64,000 bases of DNA from Alphaproteobacteria bacterium (GTDB taxonomy: Bacteria; Pseudomonadota; Alphaproteobacteria; Rhizobiales; CAJQND01), in the NCBI GenBank assembly GCA_024227565.1, contig JAAEUE010000303.1, positions 5,292-69,291 on the forward strand, given 5' to 3'. The first letter of the stretch is position 1, and each line of letters opens with the position of its first letter. A program made the position numbers and the translations under genes. The notes below the pieces were generated by a model. That model was given only the letters and a program-made list of their open reading frames with translations, was not told where the DNA came from and ran no database searches. Of this stretch, positions 3,981 through 45,552 are shown one piece after another.

Positions 3981-5317
3981 CGCACCAGCTCCCAGGTTGT
4001 GCCTTCGGGCCCGTCCTTAAGGGCGATGCCTTGTGCGGCCAATTCATCGCGAATACGGTCGGCCTCGGCAAAATCCTTCGCCGCCCTGGCCGCAAGGCGC
4101 TGGTCGATCCGCTGTTGGATGGCCGCCTCGTCAACACCGCTTGCGCGCGGGTCGGTGAGGTCGCCGGCAAAGCCCAACGCCCTGAGGCTCGACACCAGGG
4201 CCGGCCGGTCATCTGAATGGGCAAGCTGATGCAGTGCCGTCATCACGGCGGGCGTGTTCATGTCGTCGCTCAGCGCTTCAAGAACAGGCGGCGCAAAGCT
4301 CTTTTCGGCTTTGGAGAAATCCTCTCCGCCATAAAACCCCGCCAGGGTCTTGGCGCTTTCCTCCAGTCCTTTCACGGTCCAGTCGATGGGCTGGCGGTAG
4401 TGGCTGCGCAGCATGTTGTAGCGCAGCACCTCGCCGGGCCAGTCGGCCAATAGCTCGTTGATCGTGACGAAGTTGCCCAGGCTTTTGGACATCTTGTCGC
4501 CTTCCACCTGCAGGAAGCCGTTGTGCATCCACACATTGGCCATCACGTCGGTGTCGTGGGCGCAGCGCGACTGGGCCAGCTCATTCTCGTGGTGCGGGAA
4601 TGTCAGGTCGATGCCGCCGCCATGAATGTCGAAAACCTCGCCCAGATGCTCCTTGGCCATGGCCGAGCACTCTATGTGCCATCCCGGCCGGCCCCGGCCC
4701 CAAGGCGAGGGCCATCCTGGCAGGCTGTCGTCAGACGGCTTCCACATCACACTGTCGGAGGGATTGCGTTTATAGGGGGCCACTTCAACCCGCGCCCCGG
4801 CAATCATCTCATCCAGAGAACGCCCGGAAAGACTGCCGTAGTCTGGAACGCTTGCAGTATCCAGCAGCACATGGCCTTCGGCCTCATAGGCGTTGCCCTT
4901 GGCGATCAGCACCTTGATCATCTCCACCATCTGCGGAATGTGACTGGTGCAGGTAGGCTCCACATCCGGCGGCAGAACGCCTAGTGCGGCAATGTCCTCG
5001 TGGAACTGCTTGGTGGTCTTCGCTGTAACCTCGGCCACCGCAGCGTTCAGTTCAAGGTCTGGATACTCCTCTGCGGCCCGCGCATTGATCTTGTCGTCCA
5101 CGTCCGTGATGTTGCGCACATATTTGACGTGCCCGACACCGTAGATGTGCCGCAACAACCGGTACAGCACATCGAACACGATCACCGGTCGGGCATTGCC
5201 GATATGGGCAAAATCATAGACCGTTGGCCCGCAGGCATACATGCGCACGTTGTTCGCATCGATCGGCACAAACGGCGCTTTTTTGCGCGTTAGGGTGTTG
5301 TAGAGCTTCAGTTCCAT
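3977..5317 (-). CDS. cysS: cysteine--tRNA ligase
   Basis: 446 aa. [32 protein letters not shown] (HIGH-type) and KMSKSLGN (KMSKS). Its stop overlaps the cimA start by 4 bp. Confidence 0.95.
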
Positions 5318-5508
5318 CTGATCTGTTCCAAATCTATCCCGCCTTCAACGGGCCATTCCTGCCGCTGGCTGGTTCGTTCAATCGGAAATTTGAAAATAGA
5401 ACGGCCTGGCCAGCGTGTGAGCGCTAGCTGATAATAATGCCGCAGCAAGTGTTGCGGTTCGGTGTAACCGGGGCCGTTTTCATGGGTGAGGTCTTACGCC
5501 TCCAGAAT

Positions 5509-5527
5509 GCGGGGCGTCAAGCCCCGC
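5509..5527 (-). terminator. GC-rich hairpin 13 nt downstream of the DAHP synthase stop
   Basis: GCGGGGC-GTCAA-GCCCCGC, a perfect 7-bp stem. The flanking T tract is weak on both strands. Confidence 0.35.
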
Positions 5528-5539
5528 TTCTGAAGGGGT

Positions 5540-6928
5540 CTATTCTGCTGCATCCACCTGCCAGTCAGGGGTGTCGTCCCGGCGCGCCTTCTTCAGCTCT
5601 TCGGCCACCAGAAACGCCAATTCAAGCGACTGACTGGCGTTCAACCGCGGATCACAGTGGGTGTGGTAGCGGTCTGACAGATCTTCCTCAGACACTTCCC
5701 GCGCCCCGCCGATGCACTCGGTCACATTGGCGCCTGTCATCTCCACGTGGATACCGCCAGGGTGCGTGCCTTCGGCCTGGTGCACCGCCATGAAGCGTTT
5801 CACCTCATCCAGAACCCGGTCGAAGGGCCGGGTCTTGTAGCCGCTGGAGGCCTTTACGGTGTTGCCGTGCATGGGATCGCACGACCAGACAACCGACTTG
5901 CCTTCCCGCTCCACCGCACGGATGAGCGCAGGCAGATATTGCTCCACCTTGTCGTTGCCGAACCGGGCAATCAGCGTAATGCGGCCTGGTTCATTGTCCG
6001 GGCTCAGTGTGTCGATCAATCTGAGCATCTCATCAGGGTCAATTGATGGCCCACACTTCATACCGAGGGGATTTTGGATGCCCCGGCAAAATTCCACATG
6101 GGCGTGGTCAGGCTGACGCGTGCGGTCGCCAATCCACACCATGTGGCCGGAGGTGGCGTACCAGTCGCCGGAGGTGGAATCCACCCGTGTCAGCGCCTGC
6201 TCATAACCCAGCAGCAACGCCTCATGGGAGGTGAAGAAATCGGTCTGGCGAAGTTGAGGCACCGTGTCTGCGTTGATGCCGCAGGCCCTCATGAAGTCCA
6301 TGGTTTCGGTGATATGATCAGCCAATTCCTGGTACTTTTCATATTGCGGCGTGTCGGCCAGAAAGCCCAGGGTCCAGCGGTGCACATGCTCCAGGTTGGC
6401 ATAACCGCCTTGCGCGAACGCCCGGATCAGGTTGAGTGTTGCCGCAGACTGGCGGTAGGCCAAGAGCTGGCGCTCAGGGTCCGGTTTGCGCGAGTTTGAG
6501 TTGAACTCGATATCGTTGATGATATCGCCGCGATAGCTCGGCAGCTCCACATTGTCCACGGTTTCCATGTCAGACGAGCGCGGCTTGGCGAACTGGCCGG
6601 CAATGCGCCCGACCTTCACCACCGGCGAGGAGGCCGCATAGGTGAGCACCACCGACATCTGCAGGAACAGGCGGAAGGTGTCGCGAATGTTGTCGGCAGA
6701 GTGTTCTGCAAAGCTCTCCGCGCAGTCCCCTCCTTGCAGGAGGAAGCCTTTTCCGGCGGCAACTTTGGCGAGTTTGCGTTTCAGCTTGCGAGCTTCACCT
6801 GCAAATACAAGAGGGGGAAACGACGCCAGCTCAGCCTCAACTGCAGTCAGTTTGTCTTGATCTTCGTAAGCCGGCATTTGCACACCTGGCTTGCCGCGCC
6901 AACTCTCAGGAGACCATTGCTGGGCCAT
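5540..6928 (-). CDS. 3-deoxy-7-phosphoheptulonate (DAHP) synthase, class II
   Basis: [27 protein letters not shown]... is a typical class II DAHPS N-terminus. Length is about 462 aa from the internal Met. The track ORF starts 7 codons earlier, at 6949. Confidence 0.9.
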
Positions 6929-37652: not shown

Positions 37653-38837
37653 CTAGTGAACCGCCTCTATCGCCAGGGCGATGCCCTGACCGCCGCCGAT
37701 GCACATGGTCACAAGACCATAGCGACCGCCCGAGCGATGCAGCTCTGAAATGGCCTTGACCGCCAAGATCGCGCCGGTCGCGCCCACCGGGTGACCCAGT
37801 GCAATGGCACCGCCGTTGGGGTTCACCTTCTCTCCGTCAAGGCCCAGCTCCTTGGATACGGCACAAGCCTGAGCGGCGAAAGCTTCGTTGGATTCAATCA
37901 CGTCGAAATCTTCCCGTTTCAGTCCGGTGCGCTCCATCAGGTTCTTCACGGCTGGGATCGGGCCTACGCCCATTTCAGACGGCTCAACACCGGCGTGGGC
38001 ATAGCCAACCAACTTGGCCACGGGCTTGCGCCCGGCTTTGTCGGCAGCCTCGGCCTCCATCAGCACCAGCGCCGCGGCGCCATCATTAATGCCAGACGCG
38101 TTGCCGGCCGTCACCGAACCTTCCTTGTCGAACACAGCACGCAAGCTGCTGAGCGAGGCCAAGTCTGCATCGTGGCGCACGTGCTCATCTGTGTCGAAGG
38201 GCACCATCTCACGTTTAACCTTCACCTCAATAGGCAGGATCTGGTCCTTGAACCGACCCTCGGTGATGGCACGCACGGCCCGTTGTTGGCTTTGCAAAGC
38301 GAAATTGTCCTGGTCTTCCCGGCTGATCTGCCATTTGCGGGCAACGTTCTCAGCGGTGTTGCCCATGTGGCCATGGCCGAACGGGTCATGCAAAGCGGCC
38401 AACATCATGTCGACCACCTTGGCATCGCCCATCTTCACACCAAAGCGCGAATTGAGCGAGGCGTATGGCGCCCGCGACATGGATTCTGCACCGCCGGCAA
38501 CAGCCACATCCGCATCGCCCAGCATGACGGTCTGAGCGGCCGAGACGATGGCCTGGGCGCCCGAACCGCACAGACGGTTGCACGTGAGCGCCGGCGTTTC
38601 AACCGGCAGTCCGGCATCGATCATCGCCACCCGTGACAGATACATATCGCGCGGTTCGGTGTGGATCACATTGCCCAAAACCACATGTCCCACCTCTTCA
38701 GGGGCCGTCTCTGCACGGTTCAGCGCTTCTGTAATCACCGCAGCACCCATGGCGGTTGGTGCCGTGTCCTTCAGGGCCCCACCAAATGTTCCAATGGCAG
38801 TGCGGACACCAGAGAGAAAGACGACTTCGCGCGGCAT
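37653..38837 (-). CDS. acetyl-CoA C-acetyltransferase (thiolase II)
   Basis: 394 aa. NRLCGSGAQA active-site Cys, NEAFAAQ, GGAIALGHPVGATG, CIGGGQG. Confidence 0.9.
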   Translation of the reverse strand: MPREVVFLSGVRTAIGTFGGALKDTAPTAMGAAVITEALNRAETAPEEVGHVVLGNVIHTEPRDMYLSRVAMIDAGLPVETPALTCNRLCGSGAQAIVSAAQTVMLGDADVAVAGGAESMSRAPYASLNSRFGVKMGDAKVVDMMLAALHDPFGHGHMGNTAENVARKWQISREDQDNFALQSQQRAVRAITEGRFKDQILPIEVKVKREMVPFDTDEHVRHDADLASLSSLRAVFDKEGSVTAGNASGINDGAAALVLMEAEAADKAGRKPVAKLVGYAHAGVEPSEMGVGPIPAVKNLMERTGLKREDFDVIESNEAFAAQACAVSKELGLDGEKVNPNGGAIALGHPVGATGAILAVKAISELHRSGGRYGLVTMCIGGGQGIALAIEAVH

Positions 38838-38855: not shown

Positions 38856-38894
38856 TGCAAAAGAAGGACACGCCGCTGATCGCGGGCGTGTCCG
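38856..38894 (-). terminator. rho-independent terminator of the cytochrome c / 715-aa gene pair
   Basis: On the minus strand, GGACACGCC-loop-GGCGTGTCC (9-bp stem) is followed by TTCTTTTG, 54 nt after the stop at 38948. Confidence 0.7.
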
Positions 38895-38947: not shown

Positions 38948-41095
38948 TTATGGTTCAACCGGCAAGCGCAGCGCCGTATAGGCCAGGCGCTTCTTGCGTT
39001 TCTTGGAGCTCTTGCTGATCCACGATTCCAGCAGCTCGCGCACATTCTTGATCTTGGTGAAGGCTTCCTTTTGGAAATTGTGGCGGATGCCGGTGCGGCG
39101 GTTGGAGCCGTCGCACAGAGCCACAACGGTTTCCTCGCCCGCATTCTCCAAGGTCAGCTGATACGGCGCTGAACCGCTTGGCACTAGCACCTCTTTGTCC
39201 CCATTGATGGTGGGGTGGGCGCGGAACTTGTTCGGGAATACCACGGTGCCCGAGCCATCGCGGTTGGTCAGGATAAGGGTGAGCGTGCACTCGTTGAACG
39301 TCTGGATGGCAAACGAGGCTTGGTCGCCGCGCTTGTAGCGCGATTTGTCGGAGACCAACGACAGGTTGAACGCGCCAGTTTTAGGTGCGGGCTTGGAGGG
39401 CAACCTGGGCACGCCGCTGCGGAAGCCGATGAGCCGGCCAACAGATTTGGCCCGAAGCGGACTATAGTCGGTCGCAATTTTCACAATGGCGGCATACTTG
39501 GCCTCAAAGGCAATGCGAGGCAGGCCTCTTTGGGCAATCAAGCGGCCGGTGTTGAACGACTTGGTGCCCTTGTCGGCGAGGGTCTGGTTAAACACCTCTG
39601 GGGTGACCCCCACATCGGCAGCAGCGGTTTGCAGGTCCACCCCTCGGGCCTGATAGAAATCGGCAAGTGCCTTGATAGGTTCAGGCCCTTTGCCCGCCCC
39701 GCCAGCGCTGATCAATCCGGCACGCTCATAGGCTTCAGCATAGCCCTCCTCGTCGCGCCCGCGCAGGAAGTCCATATAGTCACGGCGCGGATAAAGTTTG
39801 CGCACCAGATCTTGAAGTTCCGGGGAGAACGCAGCGTTGCCGTCAACATGCACCCTGATCCGGTCGGGCACAAACTGCAGCGGCGCAAAGTTGCAGGCGG
39901 CACAATAAAACCCGTTTGAAAGGCGCCAATCATCTGCGCTCGTGTATTTCTTCAAAGGCACACCATTGATCCGGCCGCCGCTGCGATTGTAGATGAACCA
40001 GGCCCGCAAACCGTTTGGCAAGCTGAACTGGATGGTGCCGCCGTTGGACCCAAAGCGATTCTTACCGCCCGGTCCAAGAGGAAAGTCGAACAGGTTGCTC
40101 CGCTTCTCCAAACCGGTGAATTCATAAGACTGCCAATAGGCCCCATTTTCGCGGGCATGGCGCTCCAAGAGCCGGCTGGCGCTGTAAACACCATAGAGTT
40201 GAAACCCGGAACGGCTGACTTTCGCGTCCTTTTGCGCACCCATGCCAAGTTTCTTGCGCAATCCGGCAACAGATTTCGGCAAACCCAAAATGTTATAGTA
40301 AAGAGGCGGGCGAGAGGCTGCAAAGGCGAACCAATCGGCCCGCACATACGGCATTATGCTGCGCGAGGTGTTCCAGATGACCTTGTGCCGTGGCACATCC
40401 GTTTGCACTGCGTAAGGGTAAGACAGCAGGATCTTGCCCCAGGTCTTGTCGGTCCACCCCAGATCGTTCTGATGGAACCGCATGATCAGATTCTGCGGCC
40501 CGATGAGCGCCGGCGATACGGTGTTGGTGGACCAGGTCAGGCTGTTCAAAAGTTTTACCGCCGCATTCTTGTGAGCAGCAAGGTCTGCCTCGCCAACGCA
40601 GGCATTGTAAAGGTTTGCAAACGTGAGGTAACGGGTGCCATCGGCCTGTTTGCGCGGCATGGCGCTCAAGTCGGCCTTGATGGCTTCGGCAACTGCCCCA
40701 AGGTCTATGAGCTCGCGCCCACAGGTTTTGGGCGCGGCCAGGAGTTTCTGAAGAGGGATCAGCCCCTTAATCGGATCTGGCGCCGCGGCGGTTTCCACCT
40801 CGGCCTCAACAGCCGGCACCTTGGCCGCAACATCCTTCAGGGACGGTGTTTCGATCTCCTCCTGCTTGGCCGCATCTTCCGTGGGCAGGGTCGTTACCAC
40901 CTTTGCAGGCGCCGTGCTCGCAGCGGCCTTTTCCCTGAGGGCTTCGGTATTGTCGCCGGCAATTGCGCCAAACTTCACGGTGATTCTCGAGATCTCGTCT
41001 TGAGCGGCCAACAAGGTGGCCCCACTGGCACAGAAATACCCAAGCAGCACAGCCCAACGGCCTGCATTGCCCACCCGCGATCTAAAAAACTTCAT
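38948..41095 (-). CDS. large secreted protein of unknown function with a DUF4384-like C-terminal domain
   Basis: 715 aa. N-terminal hydrophobic signal/anchor, then an Ala/Glu-rich linker. The central ~450-aa region (RYLTFANLYNA...KLLNSLTW...SYPYAV...FSLPNGLRAWFIYN...NGFYCAACNF) is not recognised. Residues 575-665 read YKRGDQASFAIQTFNECTLTLILTNRDGSGTVVFPN...GEETVVAL. Confidence 0.6.
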   Translation of the reverse strand: MKFFRSRVGNAGRWAVLLGYFCASGATLLAAQDEISRITVKFGAIAGDNTEALREKAAASTAPAKVVTTLPTEDAAKQEEIETPSLKDVAAKVPAVEAEVETAAAPDPIKGLIPLQKLLAAPKTCGRELIDLGAVAEAIKADLSAMPRKQADGTRYLTFANLYNACVGEADLAAHKNAAVKLLNSLTWSTNTVSPALIGPQNLIMRFHQNDLGWTDKTWGKILLSYPYAVQTDVPRHKVIWNTSRSIMPYVRADWFAFAASRPPLYYNILGLPKSVAGLRKKLGMGAQKDAKVSRSGFQLYGVYSASRLLERHARENGAYWQSYEFTGLEKRSNLFDFPLGPGGKNRFGSNGGTIQFSLPNGLRAWFIYNRSGGRINGVPLKKYTSADDWRLSNGFYCAACNFAPLQFVPDRIRVHVDGNAAFSPELQDLVRKLYPRRDYMDFLRGRDEEGYAEAYERAGLISAGGAGKGPEPIKALADFYQARGVDLQTAAADVGVTPEVFNQTLADKGTKSFNTGRLIAQRGLPRIAFEAKYAAIVKIATDYSPLRAKSVGRLIGFRSGVPRLPSKPAPKTGAFNLSLVSDKSRYKRGDQASFAIQTFNECTLTLILTNRDGSGTVVFPNKFRAHPTINGDKEVLVPSGSAPYQLTLENAGEETVVALCDGSNRRTGIRHNFQKEAFTKIKNVRELLESWISKSSKKRKKRLAYTALRLPVEP

Positions 41096-41153
41096 TCTGC
41101 ACCGGCTCCGGCATTTGTGGTCGTCGTTTCAGGCGGAAATCTCACCACAATGA

Positions 41154-42086
41154 TCACTTGGTTTTCTTCTTCTTCCACGTGCTGGCATGCGCCGGGATTG
41201 TTTTCAGATACCCGGCAATGGCTTCACGATCCTCTTTGGTCAGCTTTGCGGTGTTCTCCTGAACGGCCACCATCGAGCCACCAAAACTGTCATAGTCAGG
41301 CATAAAGCCTGATTCCAAGGAGTAAGCAATATCCGCATCACTCCAGCTCTTCAAACCGTCAGCGTGCGGTGTCAAGTTCGGAATGACACCATCGCCTTCC
41401 GGTGCTGGACCACCAGCAAGAAGCAGGCCGGAATTGGGTCCGCCGATGAAATTTCTCGGCGTATGGCACTCGCCGCAATGGGCCGGTCCGTTAACCAGAT
41501 AGGCCCCCCGGTTGAGCTGTTCGCTCGCGTTCGGATCGGCTTTGAACGGCTGGTAGTCCATAAACAGGAATTTCCACAATCCAAGACCACGCCGCAGCCG
41601 GAAAGGCAGCGGCAGGTCATGGTCCGGAGCGTCGCCGGTAACCTTGGGAACGGTGTTCATGAAGGCCTTCAGATCGACCACATCGCTCACCTTCATGCGC
41701 TGGTAGGACATGAACGGAAACGAGGGATAATAGTGGCTGCCGTCAGGCGAGACACCGCGCATTACCGCATTCACGAACTGTAGGTCGGTCCATCCGCCGA
41801 TACCATGTTTTGGATCCGGCGAAATGTTGGGGGCGTAGAACGTCCCAAAGGGTGTTTTGAACTTATGCCCCCCGGCAAGTTTGAGCTTTTCGTCTCCTTT
41901 GGCGCCTGGGGCCGCATGGCACGACGCGCAGCCGGAGGCATAGAACATGTATTTGCCGCGCTCCACGTCTCCGCTCATGCCGGAAAGCGCGGCCTCGGCA
42001 ATGGTTTTCGGCTGTGTCAGGAAGAGGAATACGGCCAATCCGGCGACCCACAAGATTCCGCAAGCAATTATGAGACGGCGCAACAT
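41154..42086 (-). CDS. membrane-anchored diheme c-type cytochrome
   Basis: 310 aa with an N-terminal TM helix and two CxxCH motifs (CASCH, CGECH). Confidence 0.85.
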   Translation of the reverse strand: MLRRLIIACGILWVAGLAVFLFLTQPKTIAEAALSGMSGDVERGKYMFYASGCASCHAAPGAKGDEKLKLAGGHKFKTPFGTFYAPNISPDPKHGIGGWTDLQFVNAVMRGVSPDGSHYYPSFPFMSYQRMKVSDVVDLKAFMNTVPKVTGDAPDHDLPLPFRLRRGLGLWKFLFMDYQPFKADPNASEQLNRGAYLVNGPAHCGECHTPRNFIGGPNSGLLLAGGPAPEGDGVIPNLTPHADGLKSWSDADIAYSLESGFMPDYDSFGGSMVAVQENTAKLTKEDREAIAGYLKTIPAHASTWKKKKTK

Positions 42087-42284
42087 GTTCTGTCCTTTTT
42101 GGCCCCACCAGAAGTGTCACTAATAGCAAAGCACGCAGTTCCATCAAGTCAGAAGCTGCGGAGCTTGGGAAAGCTGACCACTTCGTACGCCAACGATGAG
42201 AATTTCTCCCATTTACAGATCACAAAGATTGCCTCAAGAAGCGCGCCTGAATAGTCATCAAGAGGCCTGGGAGGGGTTCAGACA

Positions 42285-43364
42285 ATGAAAGCTGCTGTTT
42301 GCCACGCGTTTGGCACGCCACTGAAGATCGAAGACGTCACATTGTCGAACCCGGGCGAAGGTGCGGTCCGTGTCAAAATCGCCGCCTGCGCCATCTGCCA
42401 TTCCGACATCATCTATATGGACGGCGCCTGGGGCGGCACCTTGCCGGCAGTCTATGGCCATGAAGCGGCCGGCGTCGTGGAAGAGGTCGGCCCCGGGGTC
42501 AACCATGTTGAGGTTGGCGATCATGTGGTGGTCACCCTCATCCGCTCATGCGGCGAGTGTCACTACTGCGCCCAAGGCCATCACGTGATTTGCGAAGGAT
42601 CAGTGCCCATCGATGCAACGCCGCCGCTCACTGCCGATGACGGTTCGGCCTTGGTCCAGGGGCTAAGATGCGGCGCGTTTGCTGAGTATGTGGTGGTGGA
42701 CGGCTCGCAAATTTGCGCCATTCCCAAGGATATTCCACTGGATTCAGCCTCCCTCCTCGCCTGCGGTGTCATGACCGGCCTCGGCGCCGTGTGGAACACC
42801 GCTCAGGTGCCGTCGGGCAGCAATGTTGTGGTGATAGGCACTGGCGGTGTCGGCCTCAACTCCGTCCAAGGTGCGGCCCTGTGCGGTGCCAAGACCGTCA
42901 TCGCGATGGACCTGGCCGAGGACAAGATGAAAGCGGCCAAAACCTTCGGCGCCACCCACACCGTCAATGCCGGGGCAAATGATGCCGCCGAGCAAGTGCG
43001 CAAGATAACCGACGGGCGCGGGGCAGACTATGTTTTCGTCACCGTGGGCGCCCTGCCCGCCATTGAACAGAGCGTTGGCCTGTTGGCCAAGGCCGGCACC
43101 GCTGTGCTTGTGGGCATGCCAGGGGATGGCGCCATTGCCAAGATCGAGCCGGACGCCATTGCCAATGCGGCCCAGCGCATCATTGGCTCAAAGATGGGCT
43201 CGTCCAAGGTGCGCGTCGACATTCCCCGGCTTGTGGACATGTATCAGCAAGGCCGCTTGAAGCTCGACGAGCTGATCACCGGCCGCTACCCGCTCAGCGA
43301 AATCAACGAAGCCATCGACAGCGTGCGCCGGGGCGAAGCCTTGCGCAATGTCATCGTCTTCTAG
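42285..43364 (+). CDS. zinc-dependent alcohol dehydrogenase family protein
   Basis: 359 aa. MKAAVCHAFG, CAICHSD, GHEAAGVVEEVG, structural Zn Cys cluster CGECHYC, VIGTGGVGL. Confidence 0.85.
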   Translation: MKAAVCHAFGTPLKIEDVTLSNPGEGAVRVKIAACAICHSDIIYMDGAWGGTLPAVYGHEAAGVVEEVGPGVNHVEVGDHVVVTLIRSCGECHYCAQGHHVICEGSVPIDATPPLTADDGSALVQGLRCGAFAEYVVVDGSQICAIPKDIPLDSASLLACGVMTGLGAVWNTAQVPSGSNVVVIGTGGVGLNSVQGAALCGAKTVIAMDLAEDKMKAAKTFGATHTVNAGANDAAEQVRKITDGRGADYVFVTVGALPAIEQSVGLLAKAGTAVLVGMPGDGAIAKIEPDAIANAAQRIIGSKMGSSKVRVDIPRLVDMYQQGRLKLDELITGRYPLSEINEAIDSVRRGEALRNVIVF

Positions 43365-43379
43365 ACAGGATCCAATCCC

Positions 43380-44582
43380 ATGAAGATTGCAGACGTCAAA
43401 ACCTGGGTTGTCGGCAATCCGCCGCCGCATTTCGGTGGGCGCTACTTCATCTTCGTCAAGCTCACCGCCGACAACGGCATTGTAGGCTACGGCGAGGTGT
43501 ATGCCGCCACCTTCAGCCCCCATGTGATCACCCAGATGGTGCACGATGTGTGCGAGCGTCATGTGATCGGCCAAGATCCGTTTCACATTGAAAAGATGTG
43601 GCGCCGGGTCTACGGCAGCGGCTATACCCTGCGCCCAGATGTTTCGCTCATGGGCGTGCTGTCAGGCATCGAGACGGCCTGCTGGGACATTGTGGGCAAG
43701 GCGGTGGACAAGCCGGTTTACGAGCTGCTCGGCGGCAAGGTTCACGAGCGCCTGAGGTCCTACACCTACCTCTATCCCAAGCATGGTACCGATGGAGCCA
43801 TTGGCACCAAGGAGGTCTACTCCAACCCAGATTTGGCCGCAGAGCGGGCCATAGAGTATGTGAACCAGGGCTTCACAGCGGTGAAGTTTGATCCGGCAGG
43901 CCCCTACACGGTCTACGACGGCGGAATGCCGACCCTTGAAGAGCTGGACCGCTCGGAACGCTTCGTGCGGCAGATCCGCGAGGCGGTTGGCAACAAGGCC
44001 GACATGCTGTTCGGCACCCATGGCCAGTTCACCGCCGCCGGCGCCATCCGCCTGGCCAAGCGGCTTGAGCCCTATGACCCGCTCTGGTTCGAAGAGCCCA
44101 CCCCGCCGGAGAACCCGAAGGAAATGGCAAGGGTGGCCAGCCAGACCTCCATTCCTGTGGCCACCGGCGAGCGCCTGTGCACCAAATGGGAGTTTGCCCG
44201 GGTGCTCGAACACCAGGCCGCCTCTATCCTGCAAATGGCCTTGGGCCGGGTGGGCGGCCTGCTGGAGGGCAAGAAGATCGCGGGCATGGCTGAAACCTAC
44301 TACGCCCAGCTTGCACCTCATCTCTATTGCGGCCCGATAGAAGGCGCCGCCAATGCTCAACTGGCAACCTGCACCCCCAATTTCCTCATTCTGGAAAGCA
44401 TCGAACAATGGGGCGGCTTCCACGCTGAGATCCTGAAAAACCCAATGAAGTGGGAGGACGGATACGTGATCCCCTCCACCGAGCCCGGTATTGGCGTGGA
44501 ACTGAACGAAGACGTGGCGGACGCGCATCCCTACGAGGGCACCGCGCTGCATCTTGAAATGGGGCCAGATCCCGTTCGCTAG
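43380..44582 (+). CDS. enolase-superfamily acid-sugar dehydratase (mandelate racemase/muconate lactonizing enzyme family)
   Basis: 400 aa. MKIADVKTWVVGN....YFIFVKLTADNGIVGYGE, FEEP metal ligand region, HLYCGP. Confidence 0.8.
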   Translation: MKIADVKTWVVGNPPPHFGGRYFIFVKLTADNGIVGYGEVYAATFSPHVITQMVHDVCERHVIGQDPFHIEKMWRRVYGSGYTLRPDVSLMGVLSGIETACWDIVGKAVDKPVYELLGGKVHERLRSYTYLYPKHGTDGAIGTKEVYSNPDLAAERAIEYVNQGFTAVKFDPAGPYTVYDGGMPTLEELDRSERFVRQIREAVGNKADMLFGTHGQFTAAGAIRLAKRLEPYDPLWFEEPTPPENPKEMARVASQTSIPVATGERLCTKWEFARVLEHQAASILQMALGRVGGLLEGKKIAGMAETYYAQLAPHLYCGPIEGAANAQLATCTPNFLILESIEQWGGFHAEILKNPMKWEDGYVIPSTEPGIGVELNEDVADAHPYEGTALHLEMGPDPVR

Positions 44583-44595
44583 GAGAGATACCAAA

Positions 44596-45552
44596 ATGAA
44601 AGTTGGATTTATCGGCCTCGGCAATGTGGGCGGCAAACTGGCCGGCAGCCTGTTGCGCAATGGCTTCGACCTCACCGTACGCGACCTCGACAAGGATGCC
44701 GCGCAAAGCTTCCTGGACGGCGGCGCCCACTGGGCGGACAGTCCCAAGGAGATGGCGGAAACTTGTGATCTCATTATCACGTGCCTGCCCTCACCAGCTG
44801 CCAGCGCCGCGGTGATGGAGGCCGTCGATGGCATTCTGGCGGGCCTCAGCGCAGGCAAGATCTGGGCGGAGATGAGCACAACCGATGAGGCGGAGGTCAA
44901 ACGGCTGGGTGAGAAGGTGAAGGCCAGGGGCGCAGAACCGGTCGATTGCCCTGTCTCCGGCGGCTGCCACCGGGCGGCCACGGGTAACATCGCCATTTTT
45001 GCAGGCTGCGAGCGTGAAACCTTTGACCGCATGTTGCCAGCCCTCACGGCCATGGGCCGCCGCGTGCTGCACACCGGCGAACTTGGGTCGGCTTCAGTCT
45101 TGAAGGTTGTGACCAACTTCCTGGCCACCGCAAACCTTGTGACCTGCTGTGAAGCGCTCATGGTCTCAAAGCAGGCCGGCATGGACCTGAACGTTGCGTT
45201 CGAGGCCATCCGCATCTCATCGGGCAACTCGTTCGTGCATGAAACCGAAAGCCAGGTGATCCTCAACGGCAGCCGCGACATCAATTTCACCATGGACCTG
45301 GTGTGCAAGGATATCGGGCTCTTCCAGGCCGTTGCCGATCGCGCCAACGTTCCCTTGGATGTATCGCCCGTGCTCGTCGACGTCTTCAAAGACGGAATGG
45401 AGCGCTATGGTGCCCGTGAATGGTCGCCCAACATCATCAAACGACTTGAAGAAGCCTGCGGCGCGAAAATTCTGGCGCCAGGATTCCCGGCCGAAATCAC
45501 CGACGATGAGCCGGAAGAAGCAGGCTACGAGATTCAGATCAAGCGCGCCTGA
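44596..45552 (+). CDS. beta-hydroxyacid (3-hydroxyisobutyrate-type) dehydrogenase family protein
   Basis: MKVGFIGLGNVGGKLAGSLLRNGFDLTVRDLD and the GSASVLKVVTN signature. About 318 aa from the internal Met. Confidence 0.8.
   Translation: MKVGFIGLGNVGGKLAGSLLRNGFDLTVRDLDKDAAQSFLDGGAHWADSPKEMAETCDLIITCLPSPAASAAVMEAVDGILAGLSAGKIWAEMSTTDEAEVKRLGEKVKARGAEPVDCPVSGGCHRAATGNIAIFAGCERETFDRMLPALTAMGRRVLHTGELGSASVLKVVTNFLATANLVTCCEALMVSKQAGMDLNVAFEAIRISSGNSFVHETESQVILNGSRDINFTMDLVCKDIGLFQAVADRANVPLDVSPVLVDVFKDGMERYGAREWSPNIIKRLEEACGAKILAPGFPAEITDDEPEEAGYEIQIKRA

Follow-up and report, generated by a model that had tools for sequence, protein, structure and literature searches.

Within 64,000 nucleotides of contig JAAEUE010000303.1 from an Alphaproteobacteria bacterium (GenBank assembly GCA_024227565.1; this whole stretch is referred to as the window), a two-gene module was identified as a reduced, heme-less variant of a widespread uncharacterized periplasmic heme-protein system. 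The module encodes a 310-aa diheme cytochrome, named CYT310 here, and a 715-aa secreted protein, for which, as for its family, the name BIG is used. By Pfam, BIG counts as a DUF4384 protein; it is homologous to 'c-type cytochrome domain-containing' proteins, and judged by its motifs it is itself no cytochrome. Its central domain represents a large uncharacterized heme-protein family for which structural modelling predicts a fold unseen in solved structures. Both BIG and CYT310 are under purifying selection.

Architecture of BIG and loss of its heme sites

The BIG gene was taken from the list of open reading frames (ORFs), and a first homology search with its product returned 144 relatives, the closest of which was 91% identical and came from a Rhizobiales metagenome-assembled genome (MAG). 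The parts of the gene and protein are given below; pLDDT is the predicted local distance difference test score of the structural model.

38948-41095, minus strand: BIG gene, 715-aa secreted heme-less protein (ORF list; 144 homologues)
41006-41095, minus strand: Sec-type signal peptide, residues 1-30, read from the translation (cleavage context ...TLLAA/QDE, without a lipobox)
40736-41005, minus strand: disordered linker rich in Ala, Glu, Lys, Thr and Pro, residues 31-120 (pLDDT below 50; composition)
39446-40735, minus strand: central domain of about 430 aa, residues 121-550 (predicted fold)
39890-39904, minus strand: decayed heme motif C398-A-A-C-N402 (alignment to the family CxxCH)
38951-39373, minus strand: C-terminal all-beta domain, residues about 575-715 (beta strands in the model; holds DUF4384)

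The signal peptide, which in the L012 orthologue ends in the cleavage context ...GALA/QEE, indicates export of BIG via Sec. An earlier note on this DNA, made from the sequence, had described a signal or anchor followed by an acidic linker, a central region of about 450 aa that could not be assigned, a CxxCH-like motif with Asn in place of His, and a DUF4384-like tail, and each of these could be recovered in the present analysis. DUF4384 (PF14326) matched residues 587-661 (39113-39337) with an E-value of 7.3e-10 and 39.2 bits against a cut-off of 27, covering profile positions 2-77 of 81. The C603/C661 pair of the C-terminal domain was invariant in alignment A2, and the domain had weak Foldseek similarity to macroglobulin/Ig-like beta-sandwiches. 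No CxxCH motif was present anywhere in the 715 residues of BIG.

Published work (PMC7475262; 10.1101/2025.01.12.632604) lists DUF4384 among the accessory domains of orthocaspases and Proteo1 Ser/Thr kinases, and the literature searched gave it no role beyond that of an accessory domain in orthocaspases and Ser/Thr kinases. BIG resembles those proteins in carrying PF14326 as its C-terminal domain, a feature also common to the C14 peptidases of the related operons described below and to the kinase fusion P0110. It differs from them in having DUF4384 behind a central domain without heme, and neither BIG nor its neighbourhood includes a protease or kinase.

The central domain of BIG had no match in Pfam, NCBIfam or PDB sequences. 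Its AlphaFold2 model was confident (pLDDT 90.4; predicted template modelling score, pTM, 0.91), and a Foldseek search with this model against the PDB returned no solved-structure match (best E 0.56, template modelling score at most 0.13). A phmmer search with the central domain alone recovered 2,493 cluster representatives (50% identity) at E of 1e-3 or below and 907 at E of 1e-30 or below. Against two-heme relatives the homologous domain of about 430 aa was 33-38% identical, with E-values down to 1e-110. A family of about 2,500 clusters, with an invariant covalent-heme motif and a confidently predicted fold without a solved relative, is thus missing from the domain databases.

Members of the family are built from a class I cytochrome c domain, the heme-c domain of about 430 aa and a variable C-terminal module, which is DUF4384 in BIG. 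The DUF4384 tail after the central domain was common to members from Hyphomicrobiales and Verrucomicrobia. In Planctomycete members, PSCyt1 and the central domain were fused to WD40 or TPR arrays, and further members carried an FGE-sulfatase or an N-terminal Ser/Thr kinase; in P0110 such a kinase fusion has DUF4384 behind the central domain. The N-terminal domain of the relatives is a class I cytochrome c (PSCyt1/PF13442), and its profile also matched FoxE, CcoP and c6. When the family profile was compared with PDB sequences, class I cytochromes were matched through this N-terminal domain and WD40 proteins through the C-termini, and no match passed through the central domain.

The relatives were annotated only as 'DUF4384 domain-containing protein', 'c-type cytochrome domain-containing protein' or 'PSCyt1/WD40 protein'. 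A 2012 study of Planctomycetes-Verrucomicrobia-Chlamydiae (PVC) genomes mentioned "PSCyt1/WD40" proteins only as uncharacterized cluster members (PMC3542564). In the literature searched, no description of the central domain or of a cytochrome-caspase-OmpA operon was found, nor any experimental characterization of the family of the two-heme relatives. PADLOC gave no match for BIG, CYT310 or P0038; only the C14 proteins of locus L005 matched, to a generic 'caspase' model. A match of P0065 to NF040606 ('di-heme cytochrome c peroxidase') had an E-value of 0.08, covered only the CxxCH segment and was dismissed.

Alignment of 121 sequences from the first search revealed Cys in 119 at each Cys position of the central motif, while the fifth position was His in 107 and Asn in 12, which were BIG and its 11 closest relatives. 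All of the 145 further cluster representatives had CxxCH at the aligned column, and 131 of them had an upstream, N-terminal CxxCH as well. Since the aligned homologues keep CxxCH, as the earlier note had asked to be checked, CAACN is a genuinely decayed heme-c site. The 11 close relatives (50-91% identical, 701-715 aa) had no CxxCH, whereas nearly every other relative had two. BIG therefore differs from its two-heme relatives in the replacement of H402 by Asn and in the missing N-terminal class I cytochrome c domain, while sharing with them the central domain and, as far as Hyphomicrobiales and Verrucomicrobia are concerned, also the DUF4384 tail. The earlier suggestion that the large protein had lost its own heme site is borne out by the column counts, and in fact two sites were lost. 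Because the heme-less clade forms a single 50% cluster (P0010) and the 145 further representatives all have CxxCH, CxxCN is derived and confined to a small lineage. Outside the clade the exceptions were P0063, with CMSCA, and P0095 and P0105, which were not aligned through the motif. P0063 (545 aa), which reads C-M-S-C-A at the central motif and has no N-terminal CxxCH, may represent a second independent heme loss; P0058 and P0061 have the central CxxCH and lack the N-terminal one.

The linker of BIG sits where the relatives have their N-terminal cytochrome c domain. It was considered as a mutated remnant of that domain and rejected, as the relatives' profile gave E-values of at least 0.19 on residues 1-135 of any clade member; the absence of a remnant signal points to replacement or complete erosion of the cytochrome domain. 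In the central domain of the clade, 15 columns invariant across a 99-sequence alignment were kept. Ten changes were identical in all 12 clade members (H402N, G405P, D325E, S397Y, S301Y, H350S, E354T, N307S, Y366W and D377N), and of these H402N, G405P and D325E fell on family-invariant positions. Several small residues gave way to bulky ones in the clade (S301Y, S397Y and Y366W), which would fit a heme pocket that was emptied and then filled in.

System I cytochrome c maturation needs the His of the motif. It is nevertheless conceivable that BIG is still a cytochrome, carrying heme on CxxCN through its two Cys, the proximal ligand being absent or other than His: the two Cys that form the thioethers are both kept, and natural variants of the heme motif exist, such as CXXCK in NrfA. 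CXXCK, however, needs a dedicated lyase, and no dedicated lyase gene was found in the conserved neighbourhood. The concerted changes H350S, E354T and G405P, together with the small-to-bulky substitutions, also speak against bound heme, and we regard this explanation as highly improbable.

Selection was assessed from the ratio of nonsynonymous to synonymous substitution rates (dN/dS), with three orthologues at 74-79% identity as the reference, at which synonymous sites are close to saturation. Against these orthologues, dN/dS was about 0.09 in the central domain of BIG and 0.07-0.11 in DUF4384. The linker was the fastest-evolving part of the gene with 0.17-0.45 (0.17-0.22 against the 74-79% orthologues), and the whole BIG gene gave 0.10-0.23. 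For CYT310 the ratio was 0.05-0.12 (0.05-0.07 against the same orthologues). Since both heme sites and the operon partners were lost and the N-terminal third is disordered, the 715-aa ORF might be taken for a remnant that is losing its function. The ORF was intact in every complete clade sequence recovered, however, and besides the low dN/dS of its two folded domains it kept most of the family-invariant residues. Gene decay is effectively refuted by the selection analysis.

The identity of the cytochromes served as a clock for the divergence of BIG. At 50-60% cytochrome identity, heme-bearing central domains were 53-58% identical to each other (minimum 49%), whereas heme-less and heme-bearing central domains were about 35% identical (maximum 40%). 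This low identity, together with the present constraint, shows a burst of change around the heme loss that was followed by constraint, a pattern indicating a new function and not a loss of function. In a rough neighbour-joining tree, the heme-less clade was placed on a long branch beside a Verrucomicrobium sequence, which is probably long-branch attraction. Four MAGs contained both the heme-less pair and a two-heme paralogue, and these second copies carried two CxxCH motifs.

CYT310 and the canonical operon

The gene of the cytochrome and its two heme motifs were located as follows.

41154-42086, minus strand: CYT310 gene, 310-aa diheme cytochrome (ORF list)
41916-41930, minus strand: heme motif CASCH, C53-H57
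41463-41477, minus strand: heme motif CGECH, C204-H208

The N-terminal hydrophobic anchor of CYT310 reads MLRRLIIACGILWVAGLAVFLFL, with a transmembrane anchor at about residues 5-23. Pfam PF00034 was matched with 49.1 bits (cut-off 21.3) in two stretches, which together with the CxxCH motifs identifies a class I c-type cytochrome. Motifs, anchor and score agree with the diheme, N-terminally anchored cytochrome described earlier, and CYT310 is thus an inner-membrane-anchored, periplasm-facing diheme class I cytochrome c. Among PDB sequences, its residues of about 35-303 aligned with the first two heme domains of triheme dehydrogenase cytochrome subunits, namely FdhC of fructose dehydrogenase (7w2j_C, E 1.4e-53), and subunits of an aldehyde dehydrogenase (8gy3_A, 1.6e-47), an alcohol dehydrogenase (quinone) (8gy2_B, 5.5e-47) and the beta subunit of a flavin adenine dinucleotide (FAD)-glucose dehydrogenase (8hdd_B, 7.6e-46).

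Dehydrogenase cytochrome subunits of this kind link periplasmic dehydrogenases to the quinone pool. By homology, the membrane-tethered CYT310 may connect periplasmic redox proteins with the respiratory chain as a relay. It resembles the FdhC/AdhB-type subunits in being membrane-associated and periplasm-facing, with homologous first two heme domains. It has, however, only two CxxCH motifs in 310 aa and an N-terminal helix anchor, whereas those subunits have three heme c domains in 440-486 aa. No gene for a periplasmic flavoprotein or pyrroloquinoline quinone (PQQ) catalytic subunit adjoined it; its neighbours in the window were BIG, a thiolase gene and a divergent Zn-type alcohol dehydrogenase (Zn-ADH) gene, as in the orthologous loci. 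Across genomes its conserved neighbours were cytochrome c', C14 peptidases and the BIG family, again unlike the FdhC/AdhB type. By heme number and partner genes, CYT310 therefore stands outside the triheme subunit family in the strict sense.

Genomic context was surveyed with one genome per species (80 loci), using a 30-sequence subset of the 99-sequence alignment as query and scoring neighbours by tblastn. Within the heme-less clade, a CYT310 homologue lay upstream in every locus with upstream sequence, and the layout ADH <- -> cytochrome - BIG - thiolase was kept down to 52% BIG identity. Upstream contexts were counted in the 58 distant heme-bearing loci with at least 5 kb of upstream sequence; ECF denotes extracytoplasmic function.

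29 of 58 distant loci: CYT310 homologue (47-61% identical) on the same strand
16 of 58 distant loci: ECF sigma factor, (zf-HC2 anti-sigma-like protein), S8 peptidase, never with the cytochrome
5 of 58 distant loci: C14 peptidases only, without the cytochrome
8 of 58 distant loci: none of cytochrome, ECF/S8 or C14

Linkage of the homologues to cytochrome genes, which the earlier note had also wanted examined, was therefore found in half of the distant loci, and most homologues had a fused N-terminal cytochrome c domain besides. In direct cytochrome-to-BIG pairs the gaps were mostly 27-131 nt. In the window, too, BIG is immediately preceded on its own strand by the diheme cytochrome gene, at a distance of 58 nt.

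The canonical operon of Hyphomicrobiales consists of cytochrome c' - CYT310 - C14 - (C14/DUF4384) - two-heme BIG - (OmpA). Copies were present at L005:1852-9166 and L093:6500-14755, among others; three of the encoded proteins together carry as many as five c-type hemes, and periplasmic caspase-like peptidases are encoded alongside. The cytochrome of L005 was 48% identical to CYT310 over its full length (E 3e-101), and in 21 loci a cytochrome c' gene directly preceded that of CYT310. Signal peptides were present in all C14 peptidases of the operon and in its OmpA-like protein, and both C14 proteins ended in DUF4384, like BIG. The first C14 of L005 (2861-4471) kept the metacaspase His/Cys dyad (AGHG … DSCHSG), while the second, C14b (4476-5945), had lost both catalytic residues (…GLGY…, DTGFSG) and is a pseudo-caspase. 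Cultured hosts of the canonical form that would be open to genetics include Labrys okinawensis DSM 18385, Afipia and Bradyrhizobium.

When the cytochrome c', C14 and OmpA proteins were searched by tblastn against the 64-kb window, none was found. BIG, unlike its two-heme relatives, does not stand beside C14 peptidases, OmpA or cytochrome c', and of the canonical operon the clade keeps only the cytochrome and the heme-less protein. The earlier note had pictured a large protein that lost its heme and works with a separate cytochrome. Of this picture the heme loss and the linkage (29/58) held, while the idea of a compensating cytochrome did not: CYT310 homologues accompany heme-bearing members too, so CYT310 is an ancestral partner and no compensation for the lost hemes.

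The same survey offers a rather unlikely alternative, in which adjacency is merely inherited and the two proteins no longer cooperate; CYT310 would then serve other periplasmic redox partners, such as the two-heme paralogue encoded elsewhere or a cytochrome c', and BIG would be an envelope structural or binding protein acting through DUF4384. In loci L094 (6507-7882) and L095 (6505-7861), cytochrome c' - diheme cytochrome pairs stood without BIG or C14 over the 2-7 kb of downstream sequence available, so that CYT310 does not partner BIG exclusively. In the MAGs with both forms, no CYT310 gene adjoined the two-heme copies within the available sequence, and the synteny of the clade reaches into unrelated metabolic genes. 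On the other hand, the tight same-strand spacing without a terminator was kept down to 52% protein identity, and the pair persisted when the genes for cytochrome c', C14 and OmpA were lost, suggesting that selection acts on the pair as such. A survey from the cytochrome side yielded four real loci, too few for statistics.

Other contexts of the heme-bearing family were diverse. An ECF sigma factor, a weakly matching zf-HC2 anti-sigma-like protein and an S8 subtilase lay upstream of two-heme BIG in Bradyrhizobium, Afipia and Pseudorhodoplanes (L037, L047, L049, L055, L065, L069, L072-L077, L079, L083, L086 and L088; L007:2765-8259), and this context and the cytochrome/C14 context never co-occurred. 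In Verrucomicrobium sp. BvORR106 (L089:1-8463) the order was ECF sigma - two small ORFs - OmpA - C14+PG_binding_1 - C14+Amidase_3 - BIG, in which the fusions to PG_binding_1 and amidase connect the system with the cell wall. About 1.6 kb downstream, the other strand encoded a 989-aa TIR-domain protein. L029:1073-11851, from the marine MAG P01_G01_bin.44, whose heme-less pair is at L011, opened with OmpA - C14 - C14+EF-hand+DUF4384. These were followed, on the opposite strand, by DUF928, a CHASE2-adenylate/guanylate cyclase and a regulator of the CRP-like type that binds cyclic nucleotide monophosphates. Next came the two-heme BIG, immediately preceded by a 574-aa protein with cytochrome c' at its end. 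Proteins resembling the 574-aa one also preceded BIG in L020 and L036, and a HEAT/cytochrome c'-like gene preceded the Planctomycete member in L090.

Possible function of the pair

BIG may be a neofunctionalized, non-heme binding partner or regulator of CYT310, that is, a pseudo-cytochrome, a reading to which we attach about as much belief as doubt. With the motif His gone, standard maturation would attach no heme, so that BIG would relay no electrons through heme. It would still dock on CYT310 via the conserved central domain and act as a non-redox adaptor or regulator, with the DUF4384 beta-sandwich tethering or targeting the cytochrome. C398 and C401 would most likely form a periplasmic disulfide. 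A comparable fate is known from pseudo-orthocaspases (PMC6426788), in which a paralogue fold likewise remains under purifying selection after losing catalytic or cofactor residues, and the canonical operon itself holds a pseudo-caspase in C14b of L005, without the His/Cys dyad. BIG differs from pseudo-orthocaspases in that covalent heme attachment, and not a protease dyad, was lost.

Several points weigh against a pseudo-cytochrome that binds CYT310. We infer the physical cooperation of the two proteins, and the complex, the co-transcription and the absence of heme are all read from sequence and context. Adjacency within the close clade could be simple inherited synteny, as the ADH, thiolase and sulfotransferase genes are syntenic too. 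Half of the distant BIG loci do without CYT310 (16 with ECF sigma and S8, 5 with C14 and 8 with none of these), and CYT310 homologues also pair with cytochrome c' with no BIG nearby in L094 and L095. The placement of the changed residues at the heme pocket is a reading of the alignment, the strict keeping of both Cys is left unexplained by a purely structural role, and the parent family is itself uncharacterized.

The two conserved Cys also lend themselves to a thiol switch, in which a C398-C401 dithiol/disulfide has replaced the heme and serves electron exchange with the diheme cytochrome or periplasmic redox sensing. Both Cys were kept in 12 of 12 clade members despite the lost His, across a clade spanning about 50% identity; the motif opens a predicted helix (residues 399-403), a geometry typical of redox-active CxxC; and a functional diheme partner was retained under strong selection. 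Yet neither a thioredoxin-like fold nor a thiol-redox signature was detected by Pfam or by Foldseek against the PDB, periplasmic CxxC pairs are usually oxidized to stable disulfides, and direct electron exchange between heme and disulfide would be unusual. Such a switch is considered improbable.

The partners of the family comprise cytochrome c' and a diheme cytochrome of the quinone-dehydrogenase type, caspase-like peptidases both active and pseudo, OmpA, ECF sigma factors, and fusions to kinase, WD40 or TPR modules, and they form a coherent periplasmic system that is apparently unstudied. On a more speculative level, to which only a small probability is given, the central domain could be an undescribed heme-c fold, and through the family, caspase-like proteases and envelope modules that bind or hydrolyse the cell wall could respond to respiratory or periplasmic redox state, with the signal passing via cytochrome c' and the membrane diheme cytochrome. 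BIG would then be a neofunctionalized heme-less paralogue, either a decoy or modulator of this pathway or a form in which heme was swapped for a CxxC thiol switch while the cytochrome partner was kept. If true, this would amount to a bacterial cytochrome c-caspase signalling axis spanning Alphaproteobacteria, Verrucomicrobia and Planctomycetes.

Whichever function is assigned to BIG, its clade represents a natural experiment, in which both hemes were lost and divergence came in a burst, after which the protein was kept under selection with the diheme cytochrome alone. Heme-less and two-heme paralogues from one genome could serve to separate the role of the fold from that of the heme.

Transcription unit and flanking genes

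The features around the two genes were as follows.

41096-41153, minus strand: 58-nt spacer between the CYT310 and BIG genes, with a GGAG ribosome-binding site ahead of the ATG
38859-38893, minus strand: intrinsic terminator 3' of the BIG gene (GC-rich bulged hairpin at 38866-38893, then TTCTTTT at 38859-38865)
37653-38837, minus strand: thiolase gene, starting about 20 nt beyond the T-run of the terminator
42087-42284, no strand assigned: 198-nt divergent intergenic region between the CYT310 gene and the Zn-ADH gene
from 42285, plus strand: Zn-type ADH gene, divergent from the pair (PF08240/PF00107)

The ORF coordinates confirmed a same-strand pair with a 58-bp gap. The spacer had no significant secondary structure (fold z = 0.14), an inverted repeat there was insignificant, and a consensus scan found no minus-strand terminator-like site in it; in the clade loci the equivalent spacer spans about 26-88 nt. 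About 55 nt past the BIG stop codon, the sequence predicts a GC-rich hairpin directly before a U-run, as in Rho-independent terminators: GGACACGCC(C)GC-GATCA-GCGGCGTGTCC, an 11-bp bulged stem followed by UUCUUUU. Its folding energy was -21.5 kcal/mol (z = -3.87), and 0 of 200 shuffles folded equally well, in keeping with the good terminator noticed earlier; it is absent from the consensus-scan output because the stem is bulged. Since the spacer is unstructured and a strong terminator stands behind the pair, the CYT310 and BIG genes probably form one co-transcribed unit.

The pair diverges from the ADH cluster, as had been noted, and its promoter is presumably located in the 198-nt divergent region. 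A sigma-70-like match was rejected as the promoter; it was the single match, overlapped the CYT310 start codon and scored at chance level. Rfam gave no match in the module, its flanks or the 198-nt region.

The plus-strand stretch 42285-45552 contained genes for the Zn-ADH, an enolase-superfamily protein (MR_MLE) and an NAD (nicotinamide adenine dinucleotide)-binding dehydrogenase, and these, together with the thiolase gene, were syntenic with the pair across the clade (L001, L004, L092). All four are cytoplasmic-type enzymes with no evident connection to the pair. The Zn-ADH cluster was considered as a partner of CYT310 and rejected, because its enzymes are of the cytoplasmic NAD type and the cytochrome tracks the BIG family across genomes. 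A 382-aa ORF on the plus strand (40157-41305) was antisense to the spacer and the 5' part of the BIG gene, and further long antisense ORFs occurred in the region; as the minus-strand genes have strong homologue support, these ORFs look like shadow ORFs of GC-rich coding DNA.

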